Shown: positions 14,649-21,414 of the stretch, one piece after another
How the letters are laid out: the number at the start of each line of letters is the position of its first letter
Numbering within the stretch: the first letter of the stretch is position 1
NCBI GenBank assembly: GCA_015486075.1
Contig: WFSG01000033.1
Location: forward strand, 61,023 to 125,022
DNA length: 64,000 nt
From: Deltaproteobacteria bacterium
GTDB taxonomy: Bacteria > Desulfobacterota > Desulfomonilia > UBA1062
Direction of reading: 5' to 3'
The notes under the pieces: model-generated
What the model saw: the letters and a program-made list of their open reading frames with translations, nothing else
Told to the model about the DNA's origin: nothing
The model's database searches: none
Program-made: the position numbers and the translations under genes

Positions 14649-15275
14649 ATGATAAAAGCAAAGACCATACTTCTTGATGTAGACTACACCCTGTATCCTA
14701 GGGGTACAGGACCCTTTAGAGAGGTAAGCAGAAGGATCGAAAAATACGTGGTATCTACGCTCTCATTAGGCCTGAAGGAGGCAAGAGAACTCAGAATGTC
14801 CTACATATCTAGGTATGGATCGACCCTGGGTGGACTTATGCATGAGCACGGGGTAGATCCAGATGAATTTCTCAGGTATGTACATGATGTACCTGTAGAG
14901 GACCTGTTGTCTCCTGATGAAAAACTAAGGAACATACTTGAAAACTTACCTTATAACCTGGTGATTTTTTCAAACGCCTCGAGGGATTATGTTGAAAGGG
15001 TATTGAGGCATCTTGGTGTAGCAGATCTAATGGGTGTTATGTTTACAATAGAATCAATGGATTTTATTCCCAAGCCAAGGAAGTATCCATACCACAAGGT
15101 AATGGATATCCTTGATGCAAGACCTGAAGATTTAATAATAGTTGATGACATGGTAGCAAATGTCTCAACTGCACTGAAGATGGGTATGGCAGGTATTCTA
15201 GTAGGGGCATCGGCTATGCCTAGTGGAGCGTTCTCCATACACGATATCTACGATATTGTCAGTGTGATTCCCTAG
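14649..15275 (+). CDS. HAD-superfamily pyrimidine 5'-nucleotidase-like hydrolase
   Basis: LLDVDYTLY, RYGSTLGGL, IFSNA, PKP, IVDD. Start at ATG 14649 behind GGGAGG. Confidence 0.88.
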   Translation: MIKAKTILLDVDYTLYPRGTGPFREVSRRIEKYVVSTLSLGLKEARELRMSYISRYGSTLGGLMHEHGVDPDEFLRYVHDVPVEDLLSPDEKLRNILENLPYNLVIFSNASRDYVERVLRHLGVADLMGVMFTIESMDFIPKPRKYPYHKVMDILDARPEDLIIVDDMVANVSTALKMGMAGILVGASAMPSGAFSIHDIYDIVSVIP

Positions 15276-15351
15276 GGTATCACATGATAGCGGCCTGAAG
15301 ATCCAAAGTCTTTACATGCTTTCTCTGTTTACATACCCTCGATAGAATATC

Positions 15352-16557
15352 CTAGGGCCAAGTCGTGATAAGCCTCTTTAGTAATGTATATCCTTCTTTT
15401 ATGAATATCCCTGTATCTTGTGCCTGTCTTTCTGAGAATTCTCGTGCGCTATCCTTAACATCCGTGCTGTCGTAAATCACGAACGGTACAGGATCCGCGG
15501 TATGTGTTCTCAGTACGAGTGGCGTTGGATGGTCAGGTAACAGCAGGCATCTGAAGTCTGTATCCATGGCCTCCATGCCCTTGAGAATATTACCCACGAT
15601 GAGTCGATCAAAATTCTCTATCGCTAGTATCTTTTCCTTGAGAAGCCCTGCATGACCTGCCTCGTCAGGTGCTTCAACGTGCACATAAACCATGTCCAGT
15701 CTTTTGAGCGCATCTAAGGCTGCCTCTGCTTTGCCTTGGTAGTTTGTGTCTATCCAACCAGTTGCACCTGGTACATTAATTACCTCCATTCCTCTTAGTA
15801 TACCAAGCCCTTTCATGAGATCCACAGCTGATATCATTGCACCGGTAATATTGTATTCCTGTTCGATGGTTGGTACCTTCATGGATCTTCCCTGTCCCCA
15901 GGGCCATATGGCAGTGGCTTCTCTCTTCCCCTGTCTTCTTCTTTTCAGGTTTATGGGATGGTCTTTCAAAACACCCATGGATTCGTGAATGAGTCCCTTG
16001 ATGAAATCGTCGTCAGGGAGATAACCCTCTACAAAGTCTCCTATTATGTCATGAGGCGGGGTAGTTTTAAGGTTGTCTTTTTCATAATCTTTTACCAGCA
16101 TTAGGTGACGATAGTCAATTCCCGGAAAGAGCTGTATGTTCCTGTACCTGGGTTCCATATTTTTCTTAAGGCTTGCTATCAGGATTGAGGCCTCTTCGGT
16201 AGATATATGGCCTGCACTGTAATCCTCCATTATAAGACCTTCGTCCCTTGGGCTCAGTGTGACCAGGTTTGTACGAAAGGCCATATCGTTGTCTCCTAGC
16301 TTTACTCCCATGCTGACTGCTTCTATTGGAGCACGCCCCGTGTAATACAGACCAGGATCCAGACCCATTACTGCCATGTTGGCAACATCACTGCCTGGCG
16401 GGAACCCTGGCTTGACTGTTCTAACCATACCGAGTTCTCCCCTTGATGCAAGGTAATCCATGTACGGGGTATTTGCGGCTTCAAGGGGTGTTTGGCCACC
16501 CAGTTCATCCACTGGTCTATCGGCCATGCCGTCACCGAGCAGTATGATTATCTTCAA
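15352..16557 (-). CDS. apgM: Cofactor-independent phosphoglycerate mutase family (ApgM; 'proposed homoserine kinase' subfamily)
   Basis: LGDGMADRP, PGSDVAN, YTGRAPIEA, HVEAPDEAGH, LPDHPTP...HT.DPVPF. Lies downstream of hom. Confidence 0.9.
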   Translation of the reverse strand: MKIIILLGDGMADRPVDELGGQTPLEAANTPYMDYLASRGELGMVRTVKPGFPPGSDVANMAVMGLDPGLYYTGRAPIEAVSMGVKLGDNDMAFRTNLVTLSPRDEGLIMEDYSAGHISTEEASILIASLKKNMEPRYRNIQLFPGIDYRHLMLVKDYEKDNLKTTPPHDIIGDFVEGYLPDDDFIKGLIHESMGVLKDHPINLKRRRQGKREATAIWPWGQGRSMKVPTIEQEYNITGAMISAVDLMKGLGILRGMEVINVPGATGWIDTNYQGKAEAALDALKRLDMVYVHVEAPDEAGHAGLLKEKILAIENFDRLIVGNILKGMEAMDTDFRCLLLPDHPTPLVLRTHTADPVPFVIYDSTDVKDSAREFSERQAQDTGIFIKEGYTLLKRLITTWP

Positions 16558-17284
16558 TGTAGTCCCTCCCTTTCTCGAACTTGTTGTACGGGTAGATCTT
16601 GTCTATTGGCGTATCCCTGTGATTCGAGATCACGATGTCACCTATGAGGTAATTGGGCCTTCTGGCCTTTTTTATCCTATCCCTCTCCTCCATGAGCCAT
16701 GCAATCCCTGCAAGGTCTCCAGCTATTTCTTCCTTTACCATGCTTTTGCAATACTCCACCTCTTCTGCAGTTACAAATTCTATTATACCACCGGCAATAT
16801 TCATTACCTGTTGAGCATCCTCGTGAATGGTCTTTATTCTATCCTTGATGTAAACGCCGACTATTATGGGCATCCCTTCTATGGTTCCCTCGCTTACAAG
16901 GTCTGCATAACCCATTGAGAGTCCTGTGAAGACCGTCTGGGAGACGAGTGTTATGATGTGGATGCTAGGCTGATGCCCCAGCTCTTTTACAACCTCTGCA
17001 GCAATACCTGCATAGGACTCAACCATGTAAGGCCTGGGCTCGTTTACAAAACCCGTGTTGTCATCCAGTACCAGTCTCCTAGCATGCCTTATATCAATAG
17101 GGCCTTCTTCTATTTTTTCGTCCTTTATGACAAAGATACTATTATCCTTTTCCAATACAAACTTTCTAAACCCTTCCCTTTTTAACCTTTCCATGGCAAA
17201 CTCTGTTCCCCTGAGCCAGAGGTCCTCTGTGTGTAAATATACCGTGGAGTTGTGGTGACTTATATTATCAAGTCTGGTTAACAT
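16532..17284 (-). CDS. Degenerate threonine synthase (ThrC)-like protein lacking the PLP-binding lysine
   Basis: Colinear similarity to the short ThrC (LTRLDNI..VYLHTE; RGTEFAMERLKREG; FVNEPRPYMVES..IAAEVVKELG; MPIIVGV; AGGIIEFVTAEEV). Sits between hom and apgM and overlaps both. Confidence 0.7.
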   Translation of the reverse strand: MLTRLDNISHHNSTVYLHTEDLWLRGTEFAMERLKREGFRKFVLEKDNSIFVIKDEKIEEGPIDIRHARRLVLDDNTGFVNEPRPYMVESYAGIAAEVVKELGHQPSIHIITLVSQTVFTGLSMGYADLVSEGTIEGMPIIVGVYIKDRIKTIHEDAQQVMNIAGGIIEFVTAEEVEYCKSMVKEEIAGDLAGIAWLMEERDRIKKARRPNYLIGDIVISNHRDTPIDKIYPYNKFEKGRDYIEDNHTAR

Positions 17285-18608
17285 CTGGGCGCCTATTCTT
17301 TAATCTCTTGTCCTCTACCCTTAAAACGACGGGTTTATCATGAACTTCTTTCAGTGATTCGATCTCCATGCTTGCCATTCTTATGTTGGACTCCTTTGCC
17401 TCGCTGGTCAACATGACAACAGGTACATAGCCAGAGATCACCTCGCTCTTTTGTATGACTGATACAATACTTATGTCGAGCTTGCCCAGTACACCGGCTA
17501 TCTTTGCAAGTACACCGGGCCTATCCACTGCATTTATCCTGAGATAGTAGTTAGAGATGATATCTCCAATGGACATGTATGCTTTCTGGTTGGATATATC
17601 CTTCATGTAACCCAAGTGAGGAATGCGGCCCGCAATGCCAGCCTTTATATTCCTGGCTATGTCAGCTATGTCACTTACCACGGCGGAGGCTGTAGGCATC
17701 ATACCTGCTCCTCTCCCGTAGTACAGGGTGGAGTCCACCACGTCACCTCTAACGTAGAATGCGTTAAAGACACCGTCTACCTTTGCAAGGAGATAATTGA
17801 AGGGTATCAGTGTGGGATGCACCCGTGCCTCAATAGTATCCCCCCTATCAATGGTTAGAGCAAGGAGTTTTATCTTGTAGCCGAGTTCTTTTGCGTAGGA
17901 TATATCCAATGCGTCAATACCAGATATGCCTTCCACGTATATCTTGTCCAGATCAGGCGGTACGCCGTAGGCAATACTTGTGACTAATGCAAGTTTGTGT
18001 GCAGCATCCATCCCGTTTATGTCAAGGGTTGGGTCTGCCTCTGCATATCCAAGGCTCTTTGCCTTTTCAAGGGCCTCTGAAAAACTCAATCCACTATCGG
18101 TCATCTCTGTTAGTATGTAATTGCAGGTGCCGTTTAAGATCCCATATATAAAGGCGTAGTTATTTGCTATGAGCGCTTCCCTTAATGTCTTTATTATGGG
18201 TATACCTCCACCAACAGCGGCCTCGAAGTAGAGGTCCCTTTTCTTTGCAAGAGCCATCTCAAAGAGCTCTCTTCCGTGCGTGGCTAGAAGGGCCTTGTTT
18301 GCCGTAACCACGTGTTTACCCCTTTCCAGTGCTTCTAGAATGAATGCCTTTGCAGGCTCAATACCACCAATGAGTTCGACTATTATATCCACCTCAGGGT
18401 CTCTTATAACCGATGCAGCATCTCTCGTGAGCATCGTGGATGGCACGTCTATGCCACGGAAGGTCTCAATATCTAGGTCAGCAATCTTAGTTAGCGTAAG
18501 GGCAAACCCTAACCTCTGTTCCAGGACTCGTTTGTTTTCTAAAAGCGTTTTAACAACACCTGTACCAATGGTACCAAAACCAAGCAGGCCTATCTTTATA
18601 TCCTTCAT
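17268..18608 (-). CDS. hom: Homoserine dehydrogenase with ACT domain
   Basis: IGLLGFGTIG, VVTANKA, FEAAVGGGIP, GILNGTCNYIL, GYAEADPT.D, GRGAG, DRPGVLA. Confidence 0.96.
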   Translation of the reverse strand: MKDIKIGLLGFGTIGTGVVKTLLENKRVLEQRLGFALTLTKIADLDIETFRGIDVPSTMLTRDAASVIRDPEVDIIVELIGGIEPAKAFILEALERGKHVVTANKALLATHGRELFEMALAKKRDLYFEAAVGGGIPIIKTLREALIANNYAFIYGILNGTCNYILTEMTDSGLSFSEALEKAKSLGYAEADPTLDINGMDAAHKLALVTSIAYGVPPDLDKIYVEGISGIDALDISYAKELGYKIKLLALTIDRGDTIEARVHPTLIPFNYLLAKVDGVFNAFYVRGDVVDSTLYYGRGAGMMPTASAVVSDIADIARNIKAGIAGRIPHLGYMKDISNQKAYMSIGDIISNYYLRINAVDRPGVLAKIAGVLGKLDISIVSVIQKSEVISGYVPVVMLTSEAKESNIRMASMEIESLKEVHDKPVVLRVEDKRLKNRRPDVNQT

Positions 18609-18617
18609 AGCAGTACC

Positions 18618-19784
18618 TCAACCCAGTATTTTTCTTATTCCTCTTATAGCCTGTCTTATTCGGTGTTCGTTCTCGACAAGTGCAAACCTGACAAACCCTT
18701 CACCGTAGCGCCCAAAGCCAATACCGGGCGACACTGCAACCTCTGCCTTCTCGAGCATGAACTTGGAGAATTCTAGGGAGCCCATTTCCTTGAATTTGTC
18801 CGGTATCGGGGCCCATACGAACATGGTTGCCCGTGGTTTCTCAACAGACCAGCCGATCCTGTTCAGGCCATCGCATAGGGTATCCCTCCTGTTCTTGTAC
18901 GTCTCTACGATCTCTCTCACGCAGCTCTGGTCCTCGTTAAGGGCTATTATCGACGCTATCTGTATTGGCTGAAATACGCCATAATCCAGATAACTCTTTA
19001 TCCTAGACAATGCAAAGATGGCCTCCTTGTTGCCAGCGGCATATCCAACTCTCCATCCAGCCATGCTATAGCTCTTGGACATGGATGTGAATTCAACTGC
19101 TATGTCCTTTGCCCCGGGTATCTGAAGAATACTTGGTGCTCTGTAAGTGCCAAAGCATAGGTCGGCATATGCAAAGTCATGTATGATGAAGATATCATGC
19201 TCTTTTGCAAAGGATACAAGCTTTTCGAAGAAATCCCTGTCAACCACCATTGTAGTGGGGTTGTGGGGGAAGGAGAGTATCATGAGCTTGGGCCTTGGCC
19301 AGGTAAGCCTTGTTGCTGTAAGCAGATCCTCGAAAAAGTCCCTTTCTTTTGACAAAGGAATGCCACGCACATTACCCCCGGCGAGAACGGTTGCATAGGT
19401 ATGTATAGGGTAAGTTGGATTGGGCACGAAAACCACGTCACCCGAGGTTATCATGGAGAGTATCATATGGGCAAAGCCCTCTTTTGTACCTATGCTAACG
19501 ATTGCCTCTGTGTCTGGATCAATGTCCACGTCGTAGCGCCTCTTGTACCAGTCGGCGACAGCAAGTCTGAGCTTATATATACCGCGGGACATGGAGTACC
19601 TGTGATTCCTGGGATTCTTAATCGCTTCTGATGCCTTGTCAACGATGTGGGCAGGCGTAGGTATATCAGGGTTACCCATGCCAAGGTCTATTATATCCCT
19701 GCCTTTTCTTCTCTCCTGTATCTTTAGGGCATCCACCTCGGCAAACACGTATGGCGGTAGCCTGTCTATTCTAGTGAACTGCAT
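18618..19784 (-). CDS. alaC: Class I/II PLP aminotransferase, AlaC/LL-DAP-like
   Basis: [42 protein letters not shown]. Confidence 0.8.
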
Positions 19785-20619
19785 CTTTTGCTTTCATCTC
19801 CTTAAGTATTTCTTTTGCATGGTATGAACTCCTAACAAGTGGGCCTGATATCACGTGCTTTATCCCCATTGACCTGCCGATGGCTGCCCATGTATCGAAA
19901 TACCGTGGTTCCCAGTACTTTTCCACTGGTATCTGGTTAAGCGTGGGCCTCATATACTGTCCAATGGTTACCACGTCAACCCCTGCATCTCTCAATGACC
20001 TGAGTAAGGTCATTATCTCTTCTTGTCTCTCTCCGAGACCTACCATGAACCCGGATTTAACCAGTGTCCCCGGTGAGCAATTCTTTGCCCAGGTGAGCAC
20101 ATTGAGACTTCTATCTATGTCTGCCCCTGGTCTTATATTACGGTGTAACCTTTTAACCGTCTCCACGTTGTGGTTGAAGACGTCAGGGCCTGCGTCCAAG
20201 ACAGCCTCTACTAGATCTTGCCTTCCTCCGAAGTCAGGAGTGAGCACCTCGATCGTTGTGCCAGGGTTCAGCTCTCTGACTTCTCGTATGGTTTCTATGA
20301 ACTTAAAAGCGCCTTTATCTGCTAGGTCATCCCTTGTAACGGACGTTATCACAACATGCTTTAGCCCTAGATCATGCGCTGCTTTAGCAACATTAAATGG
20401 TTCGTCCTCGGATGGAAGTTTTGGCTTCCCTTTCTTTATTGAACAGAACCTGCATGCCCGTGTACACGTATCCCCCAGGATCAGGAAGGTTGCAGTAGGC
20501 ACGCTGAAGCATTCTGAAATGTTCGGACACCTTGCTTCTTCACATACCGTGGAGAGAGACGCAGCGCGCAACATCACCTTTAATTCCCTGAGGTCTGAAA
20601 GTCTCTTATTCTTTCTCAA
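19771..20619 (-). CDS. lipA: Lipoyl synthase (true start possibly upstream of 20619)
   Basis: [22 protein letters not shown] radical SAM motif, [26 protein letters not shown]. Confidence 0.95.
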
Positions 20620-20947
20620 CCAGTGAGGAAGCCTGCTGTTCTCCCGTGTTTTCCTGCTTTCTGACGATTGATTGCCTTTGTTTATTGTGAAGTGCCTCCC
20701 TTTTCTCGACTTCCTTCAAGCGTTCACTTACCAGGCGTTCCTTTTGTTTCATTTCCTTTCGTACTAGTAGATTGTAAATGAATGCAATTATAGATCCTGT
20801 TACAAATGAGATAAAGAGAATAAGGTAGAGTGGATATTCAGCTGTGGCATGTCCAAGAAACTTGAGACTCACAGGTTGTTGGTTGGATACACCAAAGAGA
20901 ATCCCGATGGTAATTATTATTATCAGCAAGAAGGCCTTTATGTACAT
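20606..20947 (-). CDS. LapA-family small membrane protein
   Basis: Two TM helices with the F..SNQQPV.LKFL...EYPLYLILFISF..G pattern. TGATG coupling at 20947. Confidence 0.75.
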   Translation of the reverse strand: MYIKAFLLIIIITIGILFGVSNQQPVSLKFLGHATAEYPLYLILFISFVTGSIIAFIYNLLVRKEMKQKERLVSERLKEVEKREALHNKQRQSIVRKQENTGEQQASSLVEKE

Positions 20948-21414
20948 CAAGATAATGATCCCTTTATCTTTTCCTTTGTTTTCTCTATATGCTCGGATAT
21001 CATGTGCACATCTGCAAGTACAGGCATAAAATTGGTATCCCCTGTCCACCTCGGTACTATATGTACATGAAGGTGATCAGCAAAGCCAGCTCCAGCTACT
21101 TTGCCAAGGTTGCAACCTATGTTGAAACCTTGTGGTTTTAGGCATTCCTTTATTGCTGAGACAAGTTCCTTTACCATGGTAAATATTTCGTGCATCTCCT
21201 GTTCATCCAGGTCATCGAGGTTACCAACATGCCTGTACGGTGCCACCATGCAGTGTCCTGTTGTATAAGGATACCGATTCATTATTGAGAAGCAAGTCTT
21301 ACCCCTTTTGAGTATAAGGCTATCATTGTCCTTTGGCGCGTTGCAGAATATGCAGGCTAACTCCTTTGATTTTGATATGTATTCGGCTCTCCATGGTGCC
21401 CATAGGTTTCTCAT
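20947..21414 (-). CDS. HIT-family hydrolase (Ap4A hydrolase-like)
   Basis: LWAPWR, CIFC, NRYPY..GH, GAG..DHLHVHIVPRW.GD.NF. Confidence 0.93.
   Translation of the reverse strand: MRNLWAPWRAEYISKSKELACIFCNAPKDNDSLILKRGKTCFSIMNRYPYTTGHCMVAPYRHVGNLDDLDEQEMHEIFTMVKELVSAIKECLKPQGFNIGCNLGKVAGAGFADHLHVHIVPRWTGDTNFMPVLADVHMISEHIEKTKEKIKGSLS

Follow-up and report, generated by a model that had tools for sequence, protein, structure and literature searches.

The window, which is the whole stretch of DNA analysed here (64,000 nucleotides), contains a minus-strand operon in which an intact gene, referred to here as X, lies between a homoserine dehydrogenase gene (hom) and a gene for an alternative homoserine kinase (homK). 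The features of the operon, in order of transcription, are:

17268..18608, minus strand: hom, encoding a 446-aa homoserine dehydrogenase with a C-terminal ACT domain (Pfam Homoserine_dh, NAD_binding_3 and ACT; NCBIfam NF004976, 532 bits)
16532..17284, minus strand: X, an intact 250-aa open reading frame with an ATG start, encoding a pseudoenzyme derived from threonine synthase (ThrC) and under purifying selection
16564..16572, minus strand: AAGGGAGGG, the Shine-Dalgarno sequence of homK, read from the sequence 6 nt ahead of the homK TTG
15352..16557, minus strand: homK (thrB2), encoding a 401-aa phosphoglycerate-mutase-like alternative homoserine kinase with a TTG start (TIGR02535)

X overlaps both neighboring genes. 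Its first 17 nt coincide with the end of hom, and its last 26 nt cover the beginning of homK, including the TTG. These measurements bear out the original prediction of an intact 250-aa frame that overlaps hom and the 3' gene. The strong Shine-Dalgarno sequence of homK is embedded in the C-terminal tail of X, where conservation is poor and the structural model has low confidence. The 3' gene had been named apgM; however, its product scores 529.9 bits against the 'proposed homoserine kinase' model TIGR02535 (cut-off 446), and it is HomK/ThrB2 rather than the glycolytic ApgM. Since the third gene scores above this cut-off, the operon is hom-X-homK and not hom-X-apgM. No canonical thrB above cut-off is found in the window's genome. 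Doubts about the function of HomK (also ThrB2) were voiced earlier (PMC7311316), but recent work has borne out its role as an alternative homoserine kinase; its phosphate donor is probably other than ATP, and HomK alone weakly rescues E. coli thrB mutants (PMC13759103).

Directly upstream of hom and on the same strand (window 18618-20619, minus strand) are an Aminotran_1_2 aminotransferase gene and a lipoyl-synthase-like radical SAM gene. The ends of these genes overlap or abut, the same order is present in a related contig (L001), and the aminotransferase gene, the radical SAM gene and hom-X-homK may constitute one longer operon. A search with Rfam identifies no RNA elements in window 15000-21000. 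Three open reading frames of 67-152 aa on the plus strand (window 16460-17258), antisense to X, are frame shadows of X, and nothing points to their being real genes.

X is a genuine yet extremely degenerate homolog of ThrC. First, the three NCBIfam models matched by X are all threonine-synthase models, and all five X-family members tested match NF004996 'threonine synthase' (best E 1e-8). The scores of X are far below the family cut-offs, at 32.9 bits against NF004996 (cut-off 266) and 16.6 bits against Pfam PALP (PF00291, cut-off 35); no match to TIGR00260 is reported, and the Pfam and NCBIfam scan of X yields no match to families other than ThrC/PALP. Second, the top three matches in a phmmer search of PDB sequences with X are the ThrCs 1uim, 2zsj and 2d1f (Thermus, Aquifex and Mycobacterium), and a PDB profile search with the X family reaches 1uim at E 4.7e-6. 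Third, hhalign of the X family against the ThrCs that occupy the same operon slot in the sister family gives a probability of 95.6% (E 1.2e-8), with X residues 73-229 aligned to ThrC residues 146-323. Hhalign of the N-terminal 72 residues alone is not significant (P 0.048). Thus, the proposal that X aligns along the length of ThrC holds for residues 73-229 and lacks significance for the N-terminus, where the weak alignment falls in the register originally proposed (LRG in X corresponding to the DRG after K61).

Structural modeling provides further evidence of this relationship. An AF2 model built from an alignment of X relatives and ThrCs, in which the ThrC rows guided the model, has a pLDDT of 77 and a pTM of 0.77; the single-sequence model is poor (pLDDT 42), and the tail at residues 231-250 is below a pLDDT of 50. 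Foldseek with the alignment-based model returns short ThrCs first (2zsj at E 5.5e-11, then 1uim, 6nmx and 2d1f), before TrpB and CysK/CysM, with a TM (query) of ~0.6 to ThrC. Both sequence and fold therefore identify X as a homolog of the fold-type II enzymes, and the profile and structure comparisons that had been suggested as checks of ThrC homology agree.

Similar to the short ThrCs (Thermus/Aquifex/Bacillus-type, TIGR00260), X has a homologous fold core and a collinear sequence. However, unlike the short ThrCs, X lacks the Schiff-base Lys, the STGNT loop, R160 and the GNAGN loop, and, fold and ancestry aside, X has none of the defining features of a threonine synthase. X is ~100 residues shorter than a short ThrC, and among the 192 columns that are invariant in ThrC, 70 are deleted in X, 104 are changed, and only 18 are kept, mostly Gly and Pro. 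ThrC residues K61, S84-T88 and G187-N191 are all absent. Two former active-site segments can be placed on the DNA:

17212..17248, minus strand: remnant of the ThrC 'KxEGLNPTxSFKDRG' segment, X residues 13-25, NSTVYLHTEDLWL(RG), placed by two alignments, with the Lys missing
16930..16950, minus strand: TLVSQTV, X residues 112-118, in place of the PLP-phosphate loop PVGNAGN, placed by phmmer, hhalign and the column table

The N-P-T-x-S-F-K-D loop of the first segment is resolved differently by the two alignments, as MAFFT introduces a 6-residue gap over PTSSFK and the second alignment places an invariant Trp at K61. This residue, W23, is at or beside the old Lys position and is invariant across the X family. 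The loop had been described as cleanly deleted; the Lys is indeed gone in both alignments, but whether a gap or a Trp takes its place depends on the alignment used. Because the N-terminal hhalign is not significant, the clean deletion rests on the global alignments together with the lack of a conserved active-site Lys. The only invariant Lys in the X family, K206, is far from the old active site and aligns with a C-terminal helix Lys also found in ThrC. The predicted replacement of PVGNAGN by LVSQTV is seen in both the phmmer and the hhalign alignments; across the X family, G-N-A-G-N has become V/I-S/N-Q-T/A-V/I, with Q116 invariant.

Other losses extend throughout the protein. The S-T-G-N-T loop and its flanks (~24 aa) are deleted, and R160 is replaced by Met or Gln across the X family; from the Thermus ThrC structures, we take S-T-G-N-T to be the substrate loop and R160 to be the phosphate-binding Arg. 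In addition, X lacks two further segments of ThrC (16 aa and 22 aa) as well as its first 30 residues and its C-terminal tail, and the T-L-T-G-H-G strand end of ThrC has become S-N-H. X also contains a conserved insertion of its own, WLxxERxR, which is absent from ThrC. Because every PLP and substrate motif has been lost, X, as judged from its residues, cannot hold PLP in the fold-type II manner and is thereby excluded from catalysis of that type.

These comparisons bear on two explanations in which X retains or has acquired an activity. Nothing beyond the fold favors the idea that X remains an active threonine synthase by means of a different lysine, and this explanation is extremely improbable given that the sole invariant candidate, K206, corresponds to the C-terminal helix Lys, that X has neither the phosphate loop nor the substrate loop nor R160, and that the ThrC and PALP scores are so far under the family cut-offs. 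Alternatively, X could have acquired an activity that does not need PLP, or a site for a small molecule or a metal in a remodeled cleft, and would then be a sensor or an enzyme. Some encouragement for this explanation comes from the polar and aromatic residues that are invariant in X at former active-site positions (H18, D21, W23, R84, Y86, Y91, Q116, Y145, E169, N221 and H222). Nevertheless, it is unlikely, as X matches no other family and the glycine loop has been filled with bulky residues rather than remodeled into a known motif.

Comparisons of X copies within two genera, the window's genus (g1) and a second X-bearing genus (g7), provide evidence supporting selection on the protein. For the g1 pair, omega of X is 0.12 (95% CI 0.07-0.19) at a dS of 1.13, compared to 0.067 for hom and 0.062 for homK; for the g7 pair, omega of X is 0.32 (95% CI 0.19-0.52) at a dS of 0.26, compared to 0.13 for hom and 0.17 for homK. 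The constraint on X is thus relaxed, at an omega 2-3 times that of its neighbors, yet clearly real, and in g1 it is similar along the N-terminal remnant, the center and the C-terminal part. Between g1 and g7, X proteins share 42-45% amino acid identity and ~80 invariant positions despite saturated dS. The frame is intact in all ~8 copies, which contain no stops or frameshifts.

The massive loss of sequence and motifs, and the disappearance of the gene from most relatives, are what a slowly decaying thrC pseudogene awaiting deletion could look like. Such decay is very hard to reconcile with the intact frames of ~8 copies from two genera, which agree in length and in their deletions despite a dS of ~1.1 within a genus and saturation between genera, or with omega confidence intervals that exclude 1 in both pairs. 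The dN/dS check suggested with the original prediction therefore reveals constraint and no neutral divergence. These data support X as a selected pseudoenzyme and not a decaying pseudogene. The same view had been proposed from the sequence alone, and it is upheld by the lost motifs, the intact frames, the omega values below 1, an intact ThrC elsewhere in the genome, and a full thrC in the same slot of relatives.

The window's genome (2.3 Mb, 100% complete) contains nine PALP genes, two of which pass a thrC model:

contig C5:131209-132585 of the window's genome, G000 (L007:1336-2715), minus strand: a 459-aa ThrC with SFKD, PVGNAGN and an N-terminal Cys4 (CxxC...CxxC) Zn-ribbon (TIGR00260, 209 bits, cut-off 167)
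contig C12:7346-8515 of G000 (L003:1267-2517), plus strand: a second ThrC-like gene, 416 aa (NF006050, 325 bits, cut-off 303)

The C5 gene is the second, intact thrC for which a genome search had been suggested. ThrC of this type is present at 69-72% identity in all 24 other genomes of the window's family (f1), the genome of the same genus (G001) matching at 87% over the part recovered. It shares 37-41% identity with the slot ThrC of the sister family Desulfomonilaceae (f2), in which the 350-aa slot copy is the sole ThrC. The C5-type ThrC appears to have displaced the slot thrC. The C12 gene, found in few genomes of the family, is directly downstream of a Glu/Trp-dehydrogenase-like gene (L003:76-1251).

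The order of genes around homK differs among these lineages. The f2 genomes have hom-thrC-homK with a full thrC in the slot, g1 and g7 have hom-X-homK, and in all other f1 genera hom adjoins homK at a distance of 20-260 nt. X is not found anywhere in the genomes of these other f1 genera, and no substitute is visible. The 260-nt hom-homK gap in genus g4 (L023:2689-2948) contains a GC-rich palindromic repeat element (translating as ...VIARSENDEAI...), and no remnant of X is found in it. Searches of 5.8 billion proteins, 1.84 billion representatives, GTDB genomes and JGI metagenomes yield ~8 distinct X proteins of 246-260 aa, confined to g1 and g7, which are genera of uncultured hydrothermal-sediment Desulfomonilia. 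All copies that can be placed are in the same synteny. Exhaustive phmmer searching of the 1.84 billion representatives adds one true relative; two other matches, a 7147-aa protein and a Lys-rich repeat, are judged spurious.

Two lines of evidence trace X to the slot thrC. First, an X HMM scores slot ThrCs at 20-27 bits, the C12 ThrC at 15.8, the C5 ThrC at 10.4, and other PALP enzymes at ~0. Second, in the tree the X clade branches off at the slot-ThrC node on a very long stem (~3 changes per site), whereas long-branch attraction would be expected to have the opposite effect. Given that g1 and g7 share the same deletions, X has a single origin, close to the family's base. The HomK tree places g1, g7 and g4 basally and groups the 17 rows without X in a supported crown clade (95/88). 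X originated at or after the takeover by the second ThrC and was later deleted in the family crown. The suggested comparison of orthologs and synteny accordingly finds shared deletions and the same slot in g1 and g7 and a full thrC in the slot of f2, and X exhibits two features of a pseudoenzyme, descent from an active family with loss of catalytic residues and purifying selection.

X shares with the functional thrC of the Desulfomonilaceae both its operon slot and its translational coupling to homK. In f2, the thrC stop lies 17 nt inside homK. In g7, the X-homK junction is a 4-nt overlap in one genome and most likely alike in a second, and a third has a 17-nt gap. X could be kept mainly as operon architecture, with ribosomes reading through to homK and a protein that only folds harmlessly and has no function of its own. 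The stop-start overlaps on both sides, preserved from the f2 thrC-homK arrangement, the clean deletion of X in the crown clade, whose homK genes have intergenic leaders of their own, and the elevated omega of X relative to its neighbors are all consistent with this explanation. It is nonetheless improbable. The g1 omega of 0.12, the ~80 invariant residues and the X-specific insertion amount to more constraint than an open, harmless frame needs; homK comes with its own strong Shine-Dalgarno sequence; and one g7 genome keeps X despite the 17-nt gap.

The best overall explanation is that X is probably the remnant of the ancestral slot thrC, displaced, catalytically dead, and selected for a non-catalytic role. 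A second, distantly related ThrC (459 aa, with the Zn-ribbon) was present elsewhere in the genome at the base of the family. The slot copy lost ~100 residues and all PLP and substrate motifs, but retained the core of the fold and its operon position, with translation still coupled. X has since evolved under purifying selection in the two basal genera and was deleted in the family crown. It is presumably made as a protein with a non-catalytic role.

Among candidate mechanisms, a structural or activating partner of HomK is preferred, if tentatively, because the one property that X has kept from thrC is the slot gene's coupling to homK. The homK start is embedded in X as it is in the thrC of f2, and X could be the fossil of a ThrC-HomK association. 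A dependence of HomK on X could also be outgrown, in line with the clean loss of X in the crown clade. However, most of the family has lost X with no visible substitute, and HomK therefore does not generally depend on it; the strong Shine-Dalgarno sequence inside X belongs to homK itself. A more specific version, in which X is a required activator or scaffold of HomK and the fossil of a ThrC-HomK complex that channeled O-phosphohomoserine, is doubtful. If it were true, channeling between ThrC and HomK would explain the translational coupling of thrC and homK, and a ThrC-HomK complex might account for the weak rescue of E. coli thrB mutants by HomK (PMC13759103). Alternatively, X may be a partner of Hom or of the active ThrC; for the latter, a classic paralog heteromer is unlikely, as the C5 ThrC is only a distant relative of X (10 bits with the X HMM). 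Only two genera have X, and the rest of the family lost it unreplaced; both facts weaken the original proposal of a regulatory or scaffold subunit that would form a new control layer of threonine synthesis. The predicted role is therefore lineage-specific and dispensable rather than general. If the role does concern HomK, X bears on whether HomK works in a complex.

X resembles two known outcomes of enzyme evolution. The dead paralog of deoxyhypusine synthase in trypanosomatids is a catalytically dead paralog of the 'prozyme' type (PMC3663545). Similar to prozymes, X originates from a metabolic enzyme, has lost its catalytic residues and is retained by selection. Unlike prozymes, it results from displacement of a resident gene rather than from duplication within a lineage, and any partner of X is putative. 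X also resembles a relic of xenologous or non-orthologous displacement, in that every f1 genome has a second ThrC and the slot copy has either degenerated or disappeared. A displaced gene usually vanishes soon; X, by contrast, has been under selection since before the two genera diverged. In the accessible literature, searches for a pseudoenzyme derived from ThrC, or for a ThrC-like protein lacking the Lys, find nothing relevant. A single operon slot thus presents a natural series, from functional thrC through a selected dead relic to deletion, which shows a displaced biosynthetic enzyme being kept as a pseudoenzyme rather than lost at once, and X adds a ThrC-derived, PLP-less protein family.

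Database copies of X are all annotated as 'hypothetical protein' without a Pfam domain, and annotation pipelines and pathway-gap tools should not count X as thrC. One variant within the family is distinctive. The X ortholog of one g7 genome (L014:1297-2079, the same as L018:4973-5755; P0008) contains a 20-residue Cys-rich insertion, CPVCARLSCWDGDRQVYC, after residue 45, which is absent from all other X copies and may be a small zinc-binding knuckle.
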